Shown here in pieces: positions 1 to 11,329 of a stretch of DNA of 11,329 bases; within the stretch, counting starts at the first letter, position 1; every line of letters begins with the position of its first letter. The DNA lies in contig JBJCIZ010000546.1 in assembly GCA_051294375.1 (NCBI GenBank), positions 1 to 11,329 of the forward strand. Direction: 5' to 3'. This stretch comes from Paraspadella gotoi (taxonomy: Eukaryota; Animalia; Chaetognatha). The position numbers were made by a program, and so were the translations under genes. The notes beneath the pieces are model-generated. The model was not told where the DNA came from. It saw nothing but the letters and a program-made list of their open reading frames with translations, and made no database searches.

Positions 1-300
1 TTATCGCAATGCGTCAGAATCAAAAGGTCGGCCGCGCGGATAGGAGCGGCTATATACAAAAACCTTACGCTCGTTTGAATTCTAACTCACGCGATATCCT
101 CGGCACTAAAGTTGCGAGGGTACGTCGGTAAAAATAGCCGCCGAGAACGGAAGGCGCGCGGCCCGCGGAATGCTGCGAAGGGGCGCCTGAACAACTGTTC
201 TGTCGCTGACCTAATAGGCGCTAGCTAATTCCAAATCCGGTGCGCATAATAGCCGAGCCAACAGGTGGCATGCCCAGTGCCCAGCGAGCTTGGTAATGCC

Positions 301-343
301 CGCCCCAGGTGCTAGGAAGGTGCCTGGGGCGAAACTATAATAA
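301..343. mobile_element. GC hairpin at a composition boundary, possible Helitron/Helentron-type terminus
   Basis: The stem cgccccagg (301-309)/cctggggcg (323-331) is followed by aaactataataat, exactly where the GC-rich block 1-331 gives way to AT-rich DNA. Confidence 0.3.
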
Positions 344-838
344 TGACACTGAAGGAAACGATTAGTCAGATTTCGGTCACCGCTCAACAAATAAACAATA
401 TAAAACTTAAACTATTACCGTTAAGTAATTGGAAGCTAAAAATAAATTAATAAGTCTGAACTCTTTTTGACGCTAAATTCAAACTCGTGTCATAACGAGT
501 TCAAATATAATAATCTATCTTCACAAAAATCTCTCAATCTAAAATGTGCCATGAAAAATGCACTGAAAATCAACTACAACTTGCATATCGAACAACAAGT
601 CTAGACTACGGACCGTGAGTTCCAGTTGGCCACCGGTGACTCCGCACAATGATGTTAAAATTGAATCAGGTATGAATCGCTCACTCGATTTGCCAACTAA
701 ACTACCAAAAACAAAAATACTCGAATCTGCATTTTCAGATGTCAAAGCAAAAATAAGCAAAAGAATCATCGCTTAATTCCTTAATACACATAATTATGAC
801 AACCGTATTTAGGGCATTAGTCTTATATTTGTAAACAA

Positions 839-965
839 TTTGGTTATCATCACATCGTCTTTGGTTACATCGCATCAATTATTGTTATCATTACATCAAT
901 ATTTGGTTATCGATCGCATCAATCCTTTGGGTGTATCATCCTGCATCAATATTTTGGTTATCATT
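839..965. repeat. ~22-bp minisatellite, about 6 copies
   Basis: Tandem tttggttatcatcgcatcaata-like units of slightly irregular length. Confidence 0.85.
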
Positions 966-1273
966 GAAGAGCTCGATCCTATTCTTTTAAAGTTTTTATA
1001 AAACGACTATGTAGGCTTTGTAAATTCATCAAACCATTCACAGGTTTAAGAATTTGTAAAATTATAGTGCATAATATGTAGAAAGGAAGAGACCGTGGGT
1101 GTTAGGAGGTGGGGAGAGAGGAGAGGAGGAGTGTCATAACATAGGGTACAAGTAGTCGATGTATAGCTCTCTCTGCTCTCTCTTTTCGAACTGTCTTATT
1201 CCGCTTAATCCCGTCTCAACGGCTATATCCTAAAGACCAGATTTTTATCCTATCCCTGCCTTAAGCCTGAAGT

Positions 1274-1331
1274 CTAACCCTAATCCTAACCCTATCATAA
1301 AGTTATTACCTCAATCTTAACCTTATCCTAA
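1274..1331. repeat. Degenerate (CCCTAA)n-like hexamer tract
   Basis: ctaaccctaatcctaaccctatc...cttaaccttatcctaa. Confidence 0.45.
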
Positions 1332-2137
1332 ACAAAACCCAAAGCAAAACTTAATGGGGGAAACGCCGGCCGTGATTTTTCATTATTTAGAGTCAATCGG
1401 AAATGGTAAGCTTTGTCAGCAATTTAAAGTGTGCTTTGCATTATCTCTCTTTGTCGTTATGTTTTTTGTCGTGTGTTCTCTTTGTCATCTATTCTTCTGT
1501 TGCATTGGATGATTTCCTGACTTTACTTAGTGAAAGAACAGCCAATAACAACGCGCAACCTTTGATTTCTGCCCCTCTCTCTTTTTCTCTCAACTCACTG
1601 CTCTAACTCACTTAGAAGTCACTCTACGTTTTCCACACACTTTTTTCAAACTGATGTTCTTTGTCTCTTGTTCTTTTTCGCAAACCTGTCCTGTAAATAT
1701 GACCCACGCTTGTACTGTATCATAAACGTACCTTATCCCCTACACGAAAATAATTCTCAATTCTTAACTTAGTTGTTGTTAACTACGGCACTATTTTCTT
1801 TAAGTAAATTTGAAACTATTTGCAAAAATGTGTTAAAATCTCTGTTTTCCTTCTTTTAAACTTATTAAGTTTGGTACAAATTACGATAACAAATCTTTCA
1901 ATTAATAATCTTTATAGGTGGCTGAGTTTTTATAAGCTGAATTGAAAATTGTGTTTTTTTGGAGTTATTTTTGACAGTTATTGGGTCATATTACTGCAAA
2001 AAGTTAATTTTTAAAAGTCTAATTATAATCCAATTATGATGTTGGAATCAGTTGACCCCTCTTCTTCGGGACAGAACAATATATAAATATGACTGCGCAA
2101 TCTCAAAAGAAGTGACCAAAATGTTTAATCTTTTAAT

Positions 2138-2163
2138 TTTTAGATTCCTTTATTGGAATATTA
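2138..2163 (-). other. 3' terminal extension (rE) of the DIRS element
   Basis: AT-rich ~26 nt beyond the 3' ITR with no partner at the 5' ITR. Its reverse complement (taatattccaataaaggaatctaaaa) matches the ICR core (ttatattcctaaaggaattaaaa, 6646-6668). It contains the hairpin ATTCC-tttatt-GGAAT (2144-2159). Confidence 0.8.
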
Positions 2164-2355
2164 ATTCTATATCGGTCCGCCGCCAGCGAAATGCCCCTTT
2201 TGTTCGCGCTAGTAGTCAGTAAGAAAACGAACAAAATAACATCGATAGATGAAAAAAAGAAATGCGCAAGGGGAAGCCGTCACGTGACTGCCTCGACCGA
2301 TGGAGCCGGCAAATCCCAAGCCGGCTCCTCCCTCATGGGCCGGTATACGAAAGCC
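2164..2355 (-). repeat. 3' inverted terminal repeat of the DIRS element
   Basis: attctatatcggtccgccgccagcgaaatgcccc...gggaagccgtcacgtgac...ggtatacgaaagcc is the inverted partner of 7477-7694. Differences are mostly small indels. Confidence 0.93.
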
Positions 2356-2489
2356 ATCAAAACGTCCCCTTAGAATCCGGTGAGGGGCGCCCCACGCGAC
2401 CGTCCCTCCGCAGTAGACACTCGAAGAAGGGACTGCGCTCGGCAGACCAATCTCCACGCGGACAGATAGACGCCGCGAATCCACGCCCG

Positions 2490-3340
2490 CGAGCGAAGGC
2501 TTCTGAAACCGCCATAGCGTGTGTCCGAAACCCACCGGGGGCGCAGAAGCATCTGCTTCAAAAAAGCTCCTTGAGAATGAGGCGAAACACTGCGCGAGCC
2601 AGTGGTGACGAAAAAGGCGGCGAGCGGGGGTGCAGAAAAGAAATTGTGGCCGGGACGGGCAAATTTCGAACAAAGGCCAATTGCGAGCGCCTGAAACCCG
2701 GGCAACGATCCCAGAGAGCGGGCAGCGAATAGAAGATGGAAACGCCCTGGACCCATGTGTCCAGAACCCTGTCCGTCCTCGAAGGCGTCGATGGCAAACC
2801 CAGACCGAACGTGATCTGCCGCTGAAGGAGAGCGCCGTGTGTCGCAACGAAGCAGAGACGATCTCTGAAGGGCGCACCGAACTGACGCTAAAGCGACGGA
2901 GAAAGAGTCGAGCGTCGTAGAAGGATCCGCATCGGCGGGATCCGAAGTGCGCCGAGTCGACGAATGCGTAAAACCGAGCGCATTCACGTGGGGAAAAATC
3001 GACGTGAAGGGAGGGCGTCTCTCGAAAACCTCCCTTGAGAAGAGCGCCGGACCACAGGAAGCTCTGCCAACCCGGCGCTCCCGGCTAGGGGGGGGAGAGT
3101 AGCTGAGATGGCCGCGATCTGAGCTGTACGAGAGGTCCTCGAACACTCTCCTATCCTGAAGGAAGTCGCAGGAGCACCAAGGCTCTGGCTAGCTGCTCTC
3201 CGGGTAGCGAGCCTCTCCAGCGTCGACGATGGACGGAGAAGGGTGGAGTCGTCGATTCGAGAGAATGTGCACCGCCTAAAAACCTTTCCAACGAGAGTGC
3301 CGAGATGCGATCCGCCTGCGGTGTGCGAAAGGGTTCCGAC
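2490..3340 (-). pseudogene. DIRS tyrosine recombinase (YR), frameshifted as sequenced; N-terminal limit uncertain
   Basis: LERFLGG...PP (~3295-3250) and ARALVLLRLPSG preceding the expected catalytic Arg (~3190-3145). An HxxR-like motif reads H-P-A-R after removing one C (~2632-2620). QMLLRPRWVSDT-TLWRFQKP (~2555-2498) resembles the DIRS YR ending W.S..TF.RFY.KP. Confidence 0.75.
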
Positions 3341-3429
3341 GACGAGCAGGTGCGACGCACGAGGTTTGTTCGAGGGCGTCGCGCCAGGCAGAGGCGCCTC
3401 CGCGTCCAGAAACCCTGAAGAGGAAAAAG

Positions 3430-5330
3430 GAGGCCTCTGGAAACCACTTCTGAGACCGGCCAAACGGGGGTGATCAGGAGAAGGGAGAACCTCGCCTTCT
3501 CCAGCTTCGGAATGCACCATCATCAGCAGAGGAGGGGGAGGAAAAGATAGGCCAGTGGACAGCTGGCCAGGGCTACCCCGCAGCGGCCTCCACGAAAAAA
3601 ACGTGGAACTTGAGCCGACCGGGAGTCGCTCGAAAAAAACGATGTGGAGGGACCGATATGTTTCGACATTCCGATTCCTGCTGCAGAAACCTCTCGGAAG
3701 GAGTGTCCAGTCCGCGTTCACTTAGCGGCCCCTCTGACGACCCGCGCGCCGTGATGATAATAGTCTCTGCTTTCCGAAGAGAGAATGGACTCCTGCTTGC
3801 ATACCGTCTCCATCCCGCTACGAAGCGGCAGTGAGGAGAGACGAAGCTTTCGTCGTCTTCCAAGGATGGAACGCGCCGTCGGAAGGAAGAGCTTCGCTTG
3901 GAGAGTCCTACTGAACGCTTTCACGAAAAGGAGAGGGCAGTCTCCATTGACGCAGGCCCACAGTTGACCCGATGCGAAAACCCCAGTCCCTGCGATGAAG
4001 CACTCCGTCGTCACGGCTAAGGGCAGAGGGAGGCGGCTCAGCGCAGGAGGGTCTGTCGATCGGGACGCCGAGGTAGCCTAGGCTGAGACGAGGCGCGTCC
4101 AGCGCTTGTCCTCTTCATGGCGACGGGCCGGCAGAGTTGGAGATGGGAAACGAAGCGCCAGCCTCACCGAGATACCTCTCACCTTCGACGTCGTTCACCT
4201 TAGCGTGAGACACGACTCCCCGGGGAAATTCGTCGAGCCGACAAGGGACGGGCTAGAGCTCGATCCAGAGTCGGACCGTCGAGAAGAACGCGTGAGACCT
4301 CTGACTGGCCAAACGTTGACAATCGATACTGCAGCGTAGCACGGTCGCCAAGGACGCCGCCTGTCGAATGGCCTACGAGCTGAAGGACCTGACGAGCACG
4401 TGTGTGCGGTGTGGCAAAGATTTCCCCGCGAGAAGCGAAGCAAGTCGATTTTCGTCTCGTGGAGCGCGAAATGGGAGTGGGAAGAGGCCTGCTCCCAAAC
4501 GATAACCGAAGAAATTCGACAGCTCTGCAGAGGAGACAGGCTCGACTCTGAAGTGGATGGGTGACACCCCGCTCCTTCTTGAGTAGCCCACACCGTCCTT
4601 CCGAGTGGCGACTCGTCGACAATTGTCCGCCGAGGAAAAACTCAGGATCCAAGATGCCGTCTACAATGAAAAAAATGCAATCAATCCCATTGGTCGAGGC
4701 GGAGGGCCAAAGACTAAGGGGGTTCCCTCGTCGTCTGTGAAAAGCAAGGGCGCGGCCGATCGTAGAGCGCGCGAAAAGAAAGGGATCTGTACTGGTAGAC
4801 GCGCCCTCTCCAAAGGAAGCGGCCAAAGTCTTCGATGATCCTCCGTTGGGACGGAGAGAAGGAGATAAGCAATCGTCGGGCGGGTGCTTCACCGAGGCAC
4901 CCAGAGGCGCTCCCATCGACCTCGAAACATCCGTTCTACGTCCGGGGCTCCTCCCTCCGGAAATAAGCGGCGGCGAAAGGGAGACGAGAGTTGAAGCTTC
5001 TTTTAAGTTCAAAAATCGGGGCGCCAGGCCTCCATCTTTCTTTCGTAACAGAGGAAAAACATTGCGAAAAGAACCCGGAGAAACCGGGACTACCCTTGAT
5101 GGCCGTCTCTCCCCAAAAGCCGCCGCATCCTTCCGCGTCGACCAAGGCGTTCTCGGTCCCCAAAAGACGGTGTCGCGTCCGAGGAAGATTGGAAAGCGTC
5201 TGGAAACTCTTCGCCCCTCGAGGCGAATTCCCGAGAAGTTATCGAGAATTGGCGACGTCTCGCCAACGAGGGTCGTCCAGGGGTTGAAGCAGACGAGAGC
5301 CCGACCTCACTCGACGGGGACTTCACCGAA
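3430..5330 (-). pseudogene. pol: DIRS pol: reverse transcriptase + RNase H + methyltransferase-like domain (frameshifted as sequenced)
   Basis: Motifs read across frameshifts: PV..GR...F..WTTL....ILD..SGIRLE (~5325-5220); KKDGG-WR-PI-LNLK (~5045-5000); DFGRFLWRGRVYQYRSLSF (4830-4774); CIFFIVDGIL at the YxDD position (~4679-4650); RNase H VTT-D-ASSQGLG (~4014-3981) and NAD (~3715); MT-like FFSWRP...FPPPPLL...KLEKARFSLLLITPVWP-SQKWFP (~3600-3438). Confidence 0.9.
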
Positions 5331-6366
5331 GAAGCACCGGCGCGGAAAGATCCGTGTCGAGACTTCGGTCCATGGCGGATCCGGCACTAAAACTGGGCGG
5401 TCTCGGACGAAGGCGCGCCGCGAGGCGAGGCGTTCGAGTCACTTCGGCCGGGATGCGAATCCCCGGCCCTTCCCGTCTCCCACTTCTTGCTGAGGAACAG
5501 ACTTCATGGGTTTCCACATGCTGCCTTGAAGGTAAGACCGTGAGGGAAATGAGAGGCGCTTCCAGTCGGCAGTGGGTTCTGCGCCGAGCGCGCACGTTCA
5601 TGAAAGCGTCGAATTGAGCGCCGATTCCAGCTGCCGCCTTCCTGAATACCAAAAAGGAAGAAGATCGGTCTGGCCGCGGAGCGAGAAGGCGTGTGCCGGA
5701 ATCCTCGGCGCCACAAAGCGAGTACCTTGGCGCGCGGATCTCGCCGACTGAAAAGGTTGAGGGACGCCGCTTGAATAAGAAGCCGCGTCGCGAAGCGCGG
5801 CGGCAAAGCGGCATCGCCCAACGCTGACCTCAATTTCTGACGAGCCGGAAGCGGAGAGCCTCCTTGATTCCGCGCAGCTCATCGGAAACTAAGGATGGCA
5901 GCGCGGTAGCGCCGTTCGTCTGCATCGCACGTGAAAGGAGGCGGAGAGTAGCCGCGTTATTCCCCTTGGAAAACGCGACTCGAATTGAAGCGAGAGGCAA
6001 CGTGTTCCGGCGTCGGAAGCGGTGAACTCCGGAGGAGAAGCGACGTCGATGCCAGTGGCGTTTACTGCCGATCGCTGGGCGTTCCCAGCGAGTTCCAGTG
6101 TGCCGTGAGGAAGACCCCTTCCAACAGCGAAGAAACGCCACATGTAACGAACCTGGAACCGGCGCTCGACCTGCTCGGTGGCAGGAAGCCGCTCGAAAAC
6201 CGCCGACGTCGTCATCCGAAGACGAAACGTTTCTCCCTCCTCGCCGAATCGGAGGAGTACTTGCGCGTCCGGAATCCGGCACTGTGTGGATCGATTGACG
6301 CTTGGGTAGAGGCGAGACTGTTGTGACGGTCCGAGGCGGTGCGCCCCGATCTGATGAGGGGGCCGC
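5330..6366 (-). pseudogene. DIRS ORF1 (gag-like), predicted exon 2, frameshifted; 3' end approximate
   Basis: The frame is open from 6366 (AAPSSDRGAPPRTV...SSSDDDVGGF) into ORF 5830..6282. Overlapping minus-strand ORF fragments continue to the pol start. Positional assignment. Confidence 0.5.
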
Positions 6367-6904
6367 CTACTGAGTCGGAACAGCAGAAGAATTCGAGAAC
6401 TCATCAAAACGAGGCGAAGCGTAGTGGAGAGAAAAAACCGACCCGATATGGAATGTCACATGTAAAAAAAAACGTAAGCGGAAACAATTAGCGCGAGAAT
6501 TAAACGGAAAAAAAAACTCCCGAACCCCCCCCCTCTCTCCCAACCCGCCCTTCCCTAAGCCACCCAAAGCCACAAAAAAAACATGGTAGGAGAACAAAAA
6601 AAGGGCTGGACGTGGTGATCGGGCGAGGCGGACGCGATTATAGACTTATATTCCTAAAGGAATTAAAAATTCTCATATCGCGTCCGCCTCGCCACGAAAA
6701 TGCCCCATGCCAAGAGGCCGGAGGAAGAGCGGTTTATTTCAACAAAATTAATTCGATCGAATCAGACGAAATAAAAAATTCTAAAAGTTCCAAAAATCGA
6801 ATAATTCGAAAAAAGAAAGAAATAACGGAGAAACAAAAGAGGGAGGCGAGCGTTGAAAACGAGCTTAAAACCCCCACTACGCATATGCTCGGGGAAAAAC
6901 TCAC
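6367..6904 (-). other. Predicted 538-nt spliceosomal intron in DIRS ORF1
   Basis: Donor GCC|GTGAGT at 6904 and acceptor ttcttctgctgttccgactcagtag|GCG at 6367. The interior is T-rich, unlike the flanking GC-rich coding DNA. Phase-0 joining links the frames of ORFs 6734..7180 and 5830..6282. Confidence 0.65.
6622..6706 (-). other. Internal complementary region (ICR) of the DIRS element
   Basis: The + strand reads ggcgaggcggacgcgattataga-cttatattcctaaaggaattaaaa-ATT-ctcatatcgcgtccgcctcgccacgaaaatgcccc. This is the element's sense-strand 3' end plus rE, one ATT, then its 5' end, so the sense strand here is complementary to both termini. Confidence 0.9.
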
Positions 6905-7312
6905 GGCCCCAAAGCGTCGAAACCGCCGCTGAGACTCGGCGCGAAAATCGTCGAAATCCATCCTAAAGCTGTTGCAGTGACGAAGACATCTCGTAAGGAC
7001 AGACTCGCAGTCCTCTGTCTCGTCATCCGCGCAGTGGGGGATACCAGACCGGCCGCACAGGTCCGAGAGCCAGCGAGAGGGCGCCTGGACTAAGCCCCAC
7101 CGCTCGGCGGGCAACGCAAAGTGTCGGTTGGGTACGGGCCGAGTCCCCAAAACCGACGGAATCGGGCTGCCGAAAACCACGTAAAAGGGGGAAAGGCGGT
7201 GTCGGTGGGGCAGGTGGCGGCGGGGCGAGACCGCTCGAGTCTCCCTTAGGACCTCTCAAGCCCCGAGGGATCTTCCAAACCCTTCTCTACGTTTTAGAGA
7301 CATGTCCGACAT
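6905..7312 (-). pseudogene. DIRS ORF1 (gag-like), predicted exon 1, frameshifted as sequenced
   Basis: First ATGs inside the 5' ITR boundary are at 7312/7303 (MSDMSLKRR). A Pro-rich stretch follows, then ...WLSDLCGRSGIP...DFDDFRAESQRRF, ending at a GTGAGT donor. Assigned by position only. Confidence 0.55.
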
Positions 7313-7476
7313 TTTTCGGGCTGTCAGACTTCTTGTCGAACGTTCGTCTCTACTTGACTCTAATGAGCGGGTTTCGAAGCGTAGATATACGAGAAAATCG
7401 TGAAAAAAGTCAAGAAAAAAAACGCGGAAATCAAGTAAGGAAACAACCGAACTAGGATGAGCGCGAAAAAGAATTA

Positions 7477-7694
7477 GGCTTTCGTATACCCGGATGAGGG
7501 AGGGCCGGATTGGGATTTGCCGGGCTCCCATTGGTTCGAAGGCCGGTCACGTGACGGCTTCCCCTGATTTTTCTTTTTTCATCCTATCCGAGGTTATTTT
7601 GTTCGTTTTTTCTTACGTCTGATAAACGCGCGATCTATCGACTAGCGCGAACCCAAAAAGGGCATTTCGTGGCGAGGCGGACCGATATGAGAAT
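7477..7694 (-). repeat. 5' inverted terminal repeat of the DIRS element
   Basis: Its reverse complement (attctcatatcggtccgcctcgccacgaaatgccc...gggaagccgtcacgtgac...ggtatacgaaagcc) aligns with 2164-2355. Confidence 0.93.
7480..7555 (-). promoter_or_regulatory. Candidate Pol II promoter motifs in the 5' ITR
   Basis: Palindromic E-box GTCACGTGAC (7546-7555, also 2279-2288). Two CCAAT boxes on the minus strand (7534-7530, 7513-7509). Weak TATA-like GTATAC near 7489-7484, about 170 nt upstream of the ORF1 ATG. Confidence 0.4.
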
Positions 7695-7870
7695 CCAAGT
7701 TTTTCTAGTGTGGTAATATTTTTTTTTAATTTGGGGTTGTCTTAGGTTAAAGCACACGTTTTACAATATTTTAAAATCATCACGTAATTTGATTTATTAT
7801 TTTTGACTATTTTAGTGAAAAAAGTTTTAAACTCATTTTTATGTGATAACTCCTATGTTTTTTTAAATAC

Positions 7871-8127
7871 CTCCCTGAAATTACATCAATATGTGCGGGC
7901 ATGTTAGTCGATTATATGGACCAAAAATAAAACAAATTAAAAAAAAAATAGCTGTTTTAGAAGCAAAACAAAATAAAAAATAAATCAAGACCTTAGCGCA
8001 AAATTTTAGAAATGATTATTTTCTATCAGGTGGGCAATAGAGCAAATTTTCCTTCATCTTTTTACGAAATCTTAGCTCATTATAACGATAACTTTATGAG
8101 TTATTCATTCACTGGACTACTAGGAGT
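7871..8127 (-). pseudogene. Damaged USP35/38-like exons 3 (8127-7992) and 4 (7951-7871)
   Basis: Splice signals are largely phase-compatible (ttttctctag|, AAG|gt, 40-nt intron ending ctaaaacag|, AG|gtattt). ENLLYCPPDRK*SFLKFCAK|L resembles USP38 DFVQCIPKGKLSITFCQQL. In-frame stops lie at 8111, 8096 and 8018. Exon 4 has a stop and an apparent frameshift in a T10 run. Confidence 0.45.
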
Positions 8128-8271
8128 CTAGAGAAAAGTTACTGTATAATATATAATTATAAAATTAACCGATTTTAACGGTTTTATGAATTTAACGAAT
8201 TTCATGAAAAATTAACGGTTAACGAAACTCTACTTTGAACTCCGTCACTTAATATAAATAAATCAAACCAC

Positions 8272-8565
8272 CTGGATGTGGGCGCTGCAACTATCGCCGC
8301 GACGGTGCCGGTGCAGGCGCCCGTAGCGGAGCCGGCGTCCTCATCACCGGATTGAATGGTGGGAGGAAAGGAGGCGGTGGAGGAGACGGAGTCGGAGGGG
8401 GAGGGCGGGGAGGAGGAGGGGGTAGGAGGACCGGAACTGGGGGGCGAAGGGATGGCGCTGGCGCTAGTCGAAGGCGCAGAGGCACTAGGGGCAGCGGGGA
8501 TGGGCGTGGATGGGGAGGCGTTGGCGCGATCGAAAAAGTCGATTATAGTTTCGTGGCCGAAAAAC
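8272..8565 (-). CDS. USP38: USP35/USP38-like coding exon 2 (Pro/Ser-rich)
   Basis: A 74-nt intron (8639-8566) ends ttcttcag. The spliced frame continues YLNE|FFGHETIIDFFDRANASPSTPIPAAPS...AAPTS with no stop. Donor AG|GTGGTT at 8271. The 294-nt length fits phase 2/2. Confidence 0.75.
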
Positions 8566-8639
8566 CTGAAGAAATGATAAAGTATTAAACAGATTTACTT
8601 AAGAGTTATTAGGAAATTTCCTTCTATTTAAAGACCCAC

Positions 8640-8881
8640 TCGTTGAGATATTCTCTCTGGCCCTCGGCGAATTCCTTGAGGATGATGACGCCCATATCGC
8701 GCCGCGATTGAGACGCATCCTCCGACAAGGACCAGGACAGCGCCAGGCAGAAAACGGCGCTGAGGTCGGCGTCGGCGACGTCAGTACGCCGCGCGTTGAC
8801 GCCCACCACTTGCTGAAGGAGCCGACGCTTCACATCATCCGAATGATTCGAAGCCTCAATGCCCACAAATACTTTATCCAT
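8640..8881 (-). CDS. USP38: USP35/USP38-family deubiquitinase, coding exon 1
   Basis: MDKVFVGIEASNHSDDVKRRLLQQVV...LSAVFCLA...SRRDMGVIILKEFA resembles the USP38/USP35 N-terminus as I recall it (MDKILEGLVSSSHPLPLKRVIVRKVV...QRQVGHQVLEAYA). Donor GA|GTGGGT at 8639. Confidence 0.8.
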
Positions 8882-8884
8882 AAC

Positions 8885-9021
8885 GAGAGAGAGAGAGAAA
8901 GTGAAAGAGCGTGCGAGAGAGAGAGAGATAAAGTGAAAGAGCGAGAGAGAAAGTGAAAGAGCGAGAGAGAAAGTGAAAGAGCGAGATAAAGTGAAAGAGC
9001 GAGAGAGAGACGAGAGAGAGA
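8885..9021. repeat. Compound (GA)n microsatellite / ~20-bp minisatellite
   Basis: About five copies of gagcgagagagaaagtgaaa-like units within GA runs, ending 3 nt upstream of the USP ATG. Confidence 0.9.
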
Positions 9022-9334
9022 TATATTAATGTGCGTCGAGGACAAGTGGTTCCCTGTAGAGATTTCGCATCTTAATCGTCCTTTTCAATTTTCGTAGCAA
9101 AACATTTTTTGACTAAAAATTTAAGAAAATTAACATGAAACTTATTAAATCTGACAAATTTAAATAAAGGACAAAGAAAAGCGGTAACAGGAGAAATAAA
9201 CCCAATACATCACTCGACCGACCAGAATATAAAAAATTCTACATAATATTTAAAATAAATAAATATAAAACATAAGTAAATACAAAACTAGATTAATTTT
9301 TCCTGGACGATGTTCATTAAGGCGGCGGAGGCGT

Positions 9335-10041
9335 CTATGGGGGCGCGGCGTCCATTTTTTCGGCGGAAGCGTGAGTGAGGACCGCGTCGACGGCGGCAGC
9401 AACGCCCTCGGAGATAAAGCGATGAGTCTCGGATGCCATTTTCGAGAGGCTGACGTCGTTTACGGGTTTGGAGAAAGACGACGACGACCCTTGGCGAATA
9501 TTGGGAACTGACTCGTCTTGTTGCTGCTGCTCCTGCCGAAGATTATGCTGCTGATGCTGCGGCGGAGACTTATCAGGTTCCCCTCGGATTCTCAAAACTT
9601 TTTTCGGTTTCTCCTTTGATCTCGCGTCTTCCTCCTCCTCCTCTTCATCCTCCTTGTCTTTGTCGTCACGGGCGACCAAAATGACGGAAGAGCAAGGCCG
9701 CTCTTCGTGGGAAAAAACTCGACGCGAGGATCGAATTTGGCCGCCAATACCGCCGCTCCCATCGCCGCCGCTTCCTCGGGCGACGCTTCCAGAATGAGGA
9801 CGCCGTCTTCGAACATCAACTTCTTCAAACCGGTCTTCAACGACTGATGATGCGTCGGAGATTTCGACATCACCTTCGGGGTGAGCAGTGGGGACATTGA
9901 GATCCGCCGAGGTGCCGGCGTGGTCGTCGTTGGAAGTGGACGACTCGGAAAAAGCGGAAATAGAAGAATTTGGAAAAGATCGCGAGCGACGTCGGCGAAG
10001 ATCAAAGGCAGCCATGGGAGAATCGCTGAGAACCGCAGCAG
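9335..10041 (-). CDS. Terminal coding exon of an unidentified host gene (low-complexity Ser/acidic/Gln-rich C-terminus)
   Basis: The 226-aa ORF extends upstream in frame (AAVLSDSP-MAAF) to a pyrimidine-rich acceptor ttttattttcttttaaaaag| at 10042. It is a GC-rich island in AT-rich DNA. TAG at 9337-9335 is followed by an AT-rich 3' UTR-like stretch. Confidence 0.7.
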
Positions 10042-10162
10042 CTTTTTAAAAGAAAATAAAAAGGTAAAATGTAAGAGATAGATGAATAGTTACGAAATGA
10101 GATTGTGCTATAACTTTGCCGTTGCCAAAACAAACAAAATTTCTTTCTTTAATTTAAATAAT

Positions 10163-10350
10163 TTATTATGGCAACGGGAGGATTGCCTGTGATACCCGGG
10201 GCGCGGGGTATCTCACCAACTGGCGGAGGGGCTGCTGACCCTCAGTGACCGCCTCCTGTCACTGGCATGTTTAGATCGGCTCCGTCACATTAAAGCCAGA
10301 ACCGGGATACCCAGGGATTAAACCCGGGACGCACGGTGCTCAGTAGGGTG
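10163..10350 (-). mobile_element. 5'-truncated tRNA-derived SINE-like repeat
   Basis: Minus-strand T-arm/B-box CCGGG-TTTAATC-CCTGG (~10327-10311), a GC-rich body with hairpin gatacccggggcgcggggtatc, and an ataataaat tail. No A box is visible. Confidence 0.45.
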
Positions 10351-10535
10351 AAGTGAAAGTTTGGAATCAAAGTTTAGCAGTTATATCTTGAAAACTATCA
10401 TATTAGTGAAAACTAATGTTTTTATTTTTTTTTTTACAAATATAGTAGCCCAGTCAGCTTATTTTGTATATACTAATACCCTTACTATATAATAAGGCGT
10501 AGTATGGTGGACTAAAATCCACCAACCGTTCATCA

Positions 10536-10723
10536 GCGGCCATTGGTGCCAGAGGTAAGTCATTCGCCTCCCAACCCAAAGGTCCGGGTTTCTAGCCCGG
10601 TGGTCGCCTAGCAGTTAAGAGGGACGGGGCGCTTAACCCGCCTGTAACACGGCGTTACAGCCTGATCCAAAGCTCAGGGACTGCTTATATTGAACGGTTC
10701 TGTCATTAACACATAATAACAAT
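10536..10723 (+). mobile_element. tRNA(Gly-like)-derived SINE or pseudo-tRNA with 3' body
   Basis: 72-nt cloverleaf remnant at 10536-10607: acceptor stem GCGGCCA/TGGTCGC, A-box-like TGGTGCCAGAGG, loop CTCCCAA, T-arm CCGGG-TTTCTAG-CCCGG. The anticodon stem is broken. A structured body and an ataataacaat tail follow. Confidence 0.65.
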
Positions 10724-10765
10724 TACTGTCTCTTCAGTAGTTAAATTTTTAAATTTAACTTTATT

Positions 10766-10775
10766 NNNNNNNNNN
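10766..10775. other. Assembly gap (10 N)
   Basis: Run of n characters; contiguity across it is not guaranteed. Confidence 1.
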
Positions 10776-11010
10776 GTTTTATTTTTACTTATTAAAAAGT
10801 GGTTTGTCGGTTAAGCAATGGAAACTAATATAAGATCAGTTTTAATAAGCTGTATAAACTTTATTAATTAGTTTTTTTTCTATTTAGTTTCATTTAACTT
10901 TAGTCCCAAGGGTTTTAGAAGTAAGACGACTCTTATTCAAACCTTGAGTATATCACATCAAGTTTCATTATAATAAAAAATACAGCAATATAAAATTATT
11001 AAATATTTTA

Positions 11011-11329
11011 TTGTTTTGACAAGGAATAACAAATATTTAGTATTAAGCAATTCATAGTAGAATTTACAAGTTCATTTTTATTACTTTCATGCTAATATTT
11101 TGATTCTTATGAACAAATCATTTTTCAAGGCAGTTCTTTTGTATTTTGCTTCTCTCTCTTTCTCTCTACCTAACTTTTTCTGGAACTATTTACTTTTACT
11201 CTGGACTGCCTTTAAAAATGATTAGTTCATAAGAAACAAAATGTTGGCAAAAAAGTAAGAAAATTATACTTATAAATCTTACCACAAATCGCTTAATACT
11301 AAATATTTTTTTATTCCTTGTCAAAAAAA
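11011..11329. mobile_element. Foldback/MITE-like long inverted repeat, running off the window end
   Basis: Arms 11011-11134 and 11205-11329 are reverse complements over ~125 nt (e.g. ttttgacaaggaataa...tattaagc vs gcttaata...ttattccttgtcaaaa). The spacer is 70 nt and pyrimidine-rich. Confidence 0.8.

Follow-up and report, generated by a model that had tools for sequence, protein, structure and literature searches.

A DIRS1-like retrotransposon of Paraspadella gotoi with its ICR upstream of pol, within a predicted ORF1 intron

Can a retroelement carry the signal that restores its own ends inside an intron, so that splicing separates the RNA that is translated from the RNA that is propagated? 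Little is known of gene expression and template choice in DIRS elements, and the question is raised by a single locus in the chaetognath Paraspadella gotoi (assembly GCA_051294375.1, contig JBJCIZ010000546.1, of which positions 1-11,329, hereafter the window, were analysed). The ICR of a DIRS element found there lies upstream of pol, in a T-rich segment with the outward signs of an intron. We consider the identity of the element and the position of its ICR, then the evidence that the segment is spliced, and lastly what splicing would mean for the element.

The element and the position of its ICR

The element occupies positions 2135-7694 on the minus strand (5560 bp) and has ATT at both termini. 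Self-BLAST delimited a 5′ (left) ITR at 7477-7694, the element starting with the ATT at 7694, and a 3′ (right) ITR at 2164-2355; the pair (7477-7694 against 2355-2164) shows 76% identity over 225 columns, 40 of which are gap columns. The left ITR contains GTCACGTGAC and CCAAT, which we take to be promoter-like motifs. Beyond the right ITR lies a right extension (rE) of 29 nt (2135-2163), which ends the element with the ATT at 2135 and is matched by the right ICR only. A 5-bp hairpin was seen within it at 2144-2159; for DIRS-1, a self-priming hairpin has been proposed at the right extension (cited in PMC7192593).

Read on the minus strand, the left ITR is followed by a T-rich leader, a probable 5′ UTR (7361-7476; 38% GC, 47% T, AG-free over 7452-7360), then by ORF1a, the predicted exon 1 (6905-7312; 61% GC, first ATG at 7312), and ORF1b, the predicted exon 2 (5400-6369), both of them coding-like in composition and frameshifted. 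Single-frame protein searches (word index, representatives, atlas, PDB, Pfam) came back empty on account of the indels that disrupt the copy, and intact DIRS elements and pol-like proteins were therefore gathered and aligned in a frameshift-aware manner. With a profile built from 65 DIRS pol proteins, the match scored 158.8 against 38-55 for eight shuffles and 39 for the antisense strand; it begins at 5306 and reaches the end of the methyltransferase-like domain at 3438 at penalty 8, so that pol, with RT, RNase H and methyltransferase-like domains, spans 3438-5306. A tyrosine recombinase (YR) was aligned in the same way at 2438-3195, with a profile of 5 sequences (109.8 against 48-63 for ten shuffles and 37 for antisense). 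For the ORF1a and ORF1b pieces, Pfam, atlas and gag-profile searches yielded no protein match, the gag profile (18 N-terminal or gag sequences) scoring 38 against 36-57 for shuffles, with its best match outside ORF1; we infer from position only that ORF1 is gag. Little signal was obtained from a self-trained 3-periodic model. An ATG in strong context (GCCATGG) is present at 5373, just upstream of pol, and the element's sense (minus) strand has its two highest-ranking acceptor-like sites at 5642, upstream of pol, and at 3415, upstream of the recombinase.

The density of indels bears on everything that follows. The frameshift count in pol varies with the penalty, from 13-19 over 1021 nt to 43 over 1869 nt, about one per 45-80 nt, with insertions outnumbering deletions and 2-4 stops. 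Between the conserved parts of the ITRs there are 5 mismatches and 15 gap events, 9 of 11 deletions adjoining an identical base; the ITRs of the control elements described below are 94-95% complementary and gap-free. The pattern suggests errors of unpolished long reads or decay by slippage. Of the 402 pol-like proteins that passed, 120 were listed; the 70 of these with at least 500 aa were scored and include no close relative.

The element is DIRS1-like, as the original prediction had it. RT, RNase H and methyltransferase-like domains are followed by a co-oriented tyrosine recombinase (by our own frameshift-aware alignments), the terminal repeats are inverted, the ICR is in two parts with a 3-bp junction, and both NTT ends and a terminal extension are present; the split direct repeats of PAT and Ngaro elements are absent, there being no long direct repeats and the ends being inverted. 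With the DIRS1-like elements described in parts of PMC3266345, PMC7192593 and PMC9210276 it shares the ITRs, the rE, a two-part ICR overlapping on AAT, the ATT ends, the order ORF1-RT-RH-MT-YR and a length of 5.56 kb. It departs from the layout given in PMC3266345, which we take as typical and not as defining, in that the ICR is not between the YR and the right ITR but upstream of pol, in the predicted intron.

The left ICR (6669-6705, minus strand) is complementary to the 5′ end of the element in 35 of 37 columns, with 2 gaps, and the right ICR (6622-6671, minus strand) to the 3′ end together with the right extension, the two overlapping on the AAT circle junction at 6671-6669. When 125 tiles across the element were scored, the best here reached 62 and 59, those elsewhere at most 20, and no other tile resembled either terminus; there is thus a single ICR, 18% along the element. 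Both halves of the ICR (6622-6705) share one extra base, reading GGACGCGAT against GGACCGAT at both termini, and since the same base is present in both, the bulge is probably real and not a read error.

All 28 of the published DIRS ICRs tabulated in PMC3266345 (Additional File 3) come after the YR motif, as do those of the four control elements (L002, L003, L035, L037) after the recombinase, so that the 5′ ICR seen here is a real exception. Its position is our firmest result, solid for this copy, the one copy from which it is known, and it means that the end-joining signal need not sit near the 3′ end. Among the publications searched, no DIRS element with a 5′ or intronic ICR was found; Poulter/Butler 2015, Goodwin/Poulter 2001-2005 and Repbase, which could mention one, were outside the scope of the search. 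Term searches of the portions of PMC6681497, PMC13465315 and PMC3950715 covered were also blank, and a term search of the main text, as far as covered, of PMC3266345, PMC3783388 and PMC9210276 found no mention of introns or splicing.

Two rearrangements were considered as the origin of this layout and rejected. An inversion between the ITRs would leave the ICR 3′ of the YR, and an inverted coding block does not fit a strand bias that is uniform, T exceeding A constantly from the leader through the YR. A broader alternative is that the copy is a one-off, rearranged and dead or mis-assembled, in which an ICR-bearing fragment was placed in ORF1 and which reflects no trait of a family. That only one copy is known, and that its sequence is as full of indels as unpolished long reads or decayed copies are, speaks for it; yet the single ICR matches the element's own two ends with the correct AAT junction, the roughly 80 nt between the end of the YR and the 3′ ITR hold neither an ICR nor a remnant of one, both ATT ends, which require a working ICR, are intact, and the uniform strand bias is found in an element of normal length. 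We therefore give this explanation little credence.

The T-rich segment as a predicted intron

The ICR is enclosed by a T-rich island at 6370-6904 on the minus strand, 535 nt long if it ends with the CAG at 6370 and 538 nt if it ends with the TAG at 6367. GC content is 44% in the island, where T makes up 40% and TTTT occurs 8.0 times per 100 nt; the coding-like parts have 58-61% GC and 0.5-1.4 TTTT over the same length. Its composition change-points are broad (90% sets 6832-6967 and 6373-6437) and compatible with the predicted splice sites, but also with one frame that stops at 6901 and another that starts at 6404. The original prediction, of a T-rich 538-nt segment that opens with GTGAGT, closes with a polypyrimidine tract and AG and contains the whole ICR, agrees with what we found on the minus strand, GTGAGT lying at 6904-6899, TAG at 6369-6367 and the ICR at 6622-6705.

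The predicted 5′ splice site, GTGAGT at 6899-6904, is the sole GTRAGT in the 5560 nt of the sense strand, where 0.92 would be expected over the whole element and 0.03 over the boundary interval of 180 nt. It has no match on the exon side, and a ranking of 278 GTs by U1 pairing leaves it outside the first 15; depending on the score used, 15% or 86% of 260-nt windows do as well. At the other end (6367-6407), a branch-like TTGAT at 6407 and a pyrimidine tract precede tandem acceptors, CAG at 6370 and TAG at 6367. The AG-free zone near this end (6517-6400, 117 nt) is the second longest in the element; the acceptor ranks sixth in the element and is matched by 27% of windows. The signals of a U2-type intron (GT donor consensus, branch point, pyrimidine tract, YAG) are thus all present, at moderate strength only.

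The two ends of the island are also predicted to pair. A 12-bp helix between 6871-6882 and 6419-6430 (6882-6871 with 6430-6419) has an energy of -20.0 kcal/mol, the strongest outside the ICR, with a pair probability of 0.62-1.0; 2 of 1000 shuffles were equally strong, in windows picked after inspection of the fold. The overall folding of the island without the ICR is no better than that of shuffles (z -1.1). We rejected an Introner-like insertion as the source of the island, the inverted arms sitting 22 and 49 nt inside its ends.

The reading frame says less than had been supposed. The claim that removal of the segment fuses two ORF1 frames holds insofar as excision of 6904-6367 leaves 178 open codons. 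However, no YAG lies between the branch-like site and the CAG at 6370, 3 nt before 6367, and a phase-0 join at that CAG meets an immediate stop, so that a phase-0 join requires the second AG; at 6367 all three phases are open (50-178 codons), and an open join there therefore says little. A weak codon model, right for 20 of 34 held-out segments, gives the phase-0 frame 0.03-0.14 at 6369-6345, favours another frame (0.80-0.93) at 6273-6153, and assigns most of the initial 250 nt of exon 2 to other frames; a splice in phase 2 reaches the frame favoured by the model, with 159 open codons. The phase-0 junction of 6905 to 6366 that was originally proposed is thus probably not the native one, the first usable AG being that at 6370 and the codon model favouring another frame. 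The indels in this copy are so dense that the native phase is unreadable and phase-based arguments are weak.

These same frames raise the possibility that the island is a plain spacer between two ORFs, never spliced, ORF1a stopping at the TGA at 6903-6901, ORF1b starting at the ATG at 6404 and being reached by reinitiation, an internal start or trans-splicing, and the ICR occupying the sole non-coding room. One ORF1a frame is indeed closed exactly by this TGA, inside the would-be donor, the ATG opens a frame of 171 codons which is that favoured by the codon model, the 3′ composition boundary is 0.8 likely to be at or above 6400 under an order-1 model, and the leader is equally T-rich. Nevertheless, a phase-2 splice gives the same frame, and a spacer leaves unexplained the sole GTRAGT, the branch-like site with its first CAG, the helix joining the edges, and the splice-like flanks of canonical ICRs reported in the next section. 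We consider a spacer unlikely, though a stronger competitor than a one-off rearrangement, and prefer to read the island as a predicted intron.

Splice-like flanks of ICRs in control elements

As controls we used intact DIRS elements from bacterial assemblies (four elements from two assemblies: L002, L003, L035 and L037), leaving out a fragment without ends (L038) and matches without the methyltransferase part. In three bacterial species representatives (G001, G002 and G212; loci L002-L041) there are intact DIRS elements of eukaryotic kind, together with related retroelements, in part on megabase contigs; they are likely host contamination. Overlapping samples of 401, 401 and 301 prokaryote assemblies added one partial element only; no DIRS element was found in viral contigs or plasmids, Rfam gave no match, and a 20-nt ITR pattern found a single locus in metagenome contigs, bacterial-looking and judged to be a chance match. 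An ICR is present in four of the five two-ended controls, the exception being L036 (sense 2296-6707), which has both ITRs and a truncated YR. The controls are divergent, the pol proteins of L002 and L003 being 33-54% identical to the others.

All four control ICRs are preceded by a donor-like GT, at 63, 54, 7 and 35 nt (GTGAGA, GTGAGT, GTATGT and CAG followed by GTGAGA), and three of the four are followed by a pyrimidine-rich CAG, at 50, 80 and 59 nt. The flanking sites are at 7275-7477 (sense) in L037, 10403-10636 in L002, 5636-5825 (sense) in L035 and 5159/5262 in L003. In L037 the flanks of the ICR read as a textbook intron of 203 nt, and no acceptor in L002 is better than the site that follows its ICR; in L003 a good acceptor is lacking after the ICR (0.89). 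Combined window ranks gave p values of 0.007 (post hoc score) or 0.04 (U1 score) for the donors and 0.017 for the acceptors, against 0.88 and 0.91 for mirrored positions, in a test that is small and post hoc, uses crude scores and ranks mostly against coding windows. With four elements from two assemblies and such scores, the result is only a lead. It nevertheless raises the odds that the island at 6904-6370 is an intron, and suggests that a module of donor, ICR and acceptor moved as a unit, which would explain why ORF1 tolerated the insertion; the island itself has no DNA likeness to the controls.

These flanks further hint that canonical 3′ ICRs may themselves be intronic, hidden in an intron of the 3′ UTR in DIRS1-like elements generally, the module having moved into ORF1 in the present case. 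We put this forward tentatively, as a possibility with the odds against it. If it were true, mRNA and template would be separated throughout the superfamily, and hosts would have a handle at the level of splicing.

GTGAGT was also seen right past the left ITR in L003 (254) and in L035 (sense 84), after GAG and AAG respectively, marking possible leader introns. If these are introns, introns in DIRS elements can persist without an ICR inside, and may do so for other reasons too, for example alternative acceptors for pol and YR. The frames of L003 have no Met before residue 205 in pol and residue 212 in YR.

The island could also be a real intron whose main role is another one, either keeping the ICR out of mRNA as a protection against RNAi or providing a shared donor for acceptors before pol and the recombinase. 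It has been proposed that dsRNA arises when the ICR pairs with the termini in RNA (PMC3950715, in part), the acceptor-like sites at 5642 and 3415 are strong, and L003 pol lacks a Met ahead of residue 205. Against this, both sites are in coding sequence, where pyrimidine-rich codons yield acceptors by chance, and the pairing of ITR with ITR would survive splicing. Such roles are compatible with a model in which mRNA lacks the ICR and do not exclude it; as the main role, we hold them to be improbable, marginally more so than a one-off origin, and return to the intron as a means of parting mRNA from template.

A possible separation of mRNA and template

Our preferred reading, to which we assign a probability of roughly 0.55, is that the island is a retained intron that carries the ICR, its removal yielding an ICR-less mRNA and only unspliced RNA being propagated. 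Experiments on DIRS-1 of Dictyostelium, reported in sections of PMC7192593, bear on the second step: deletion of the ICR left cDNA synthesis in place and abolished insertion, the RT copied both spliced and unspliced RNA of an element whose marker intron lay close to the 5′ end, and the ICR was needed after first-strand synthesis. Transcription would start from the left ITR, and the helix joining the ends of the intron may bring donor and branch point together. Splicing from 6904, probably to 6370, would then join ORF1a to ORF1b in a continuous ORF1, and unspliced RNA would encode a truncated ORF1a. The spliced, ICR-less RNA would serve as mRNA and its cDNA would be a dead end, so that the intron would be present in each new full copy; unspliced RNA alone would give cDNA that can regenerate its ends and integrate. 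The donor-ICR-acceptor module would probably have been shifted into ORF1 from its usual 3′ site. Such a sorting does not require a regulated switch, since a fixed level of partial splicing would do.

The packaging signal of retroviruses sits downstream of the major splice donor and is lost from spliced RNAs. It resembles the layout proposed here in being a cis signal for propagation that splicing removes, but it selects RNA before reverse transcription, whereas the ICR acts on cDNA after first-strand synthesis; spliced DIRS RNA would for this reason still be copied, into dead-end cDNA. A closer likeness is found in the Ty1/Copia element EVD, in which, according to the part of PMC5580714 covered, a spliced shGAG RNA gives Gag, the intron-retaining RNA is the template of reverse transcription, and the intron persists through that unspliced template. 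Splicing in EVD is coupled to early termination, whereas here the predicted intron would carry the end-joining signal itself. Penelope-like elements likewise keep a 5′ intron through retrotransposition, and the significance of this retention is called unknown in the passages of PMC8557442 covered; they are of another class and mechanism, and for the DIRS element a direct reason for retention is proposed. An intronic ICR, if real, would give a retroelement such a reason to keep an intron, and would also offer a simple test of the circle model, in which spliced RNA should lead to dead-end cDNA; the controls suggest that this test is feasible in any fish or invertebrate DIRS element for which RNA data exist.

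Outside the element, GC-rich, host-like exons with no obvious frameshifts were seen on the minus strand at 9335-10045 and 8290-8710, for which no Pfam family passed, and one of them has a GT-AG intron of 74 nt at about 8638-8565 (minus strand). The window also holds an AG-rich tandem array at 8876-9031 and, at its edge (11011-11329), a MITE-like inverted repeat with arms of 107 nt (82%).
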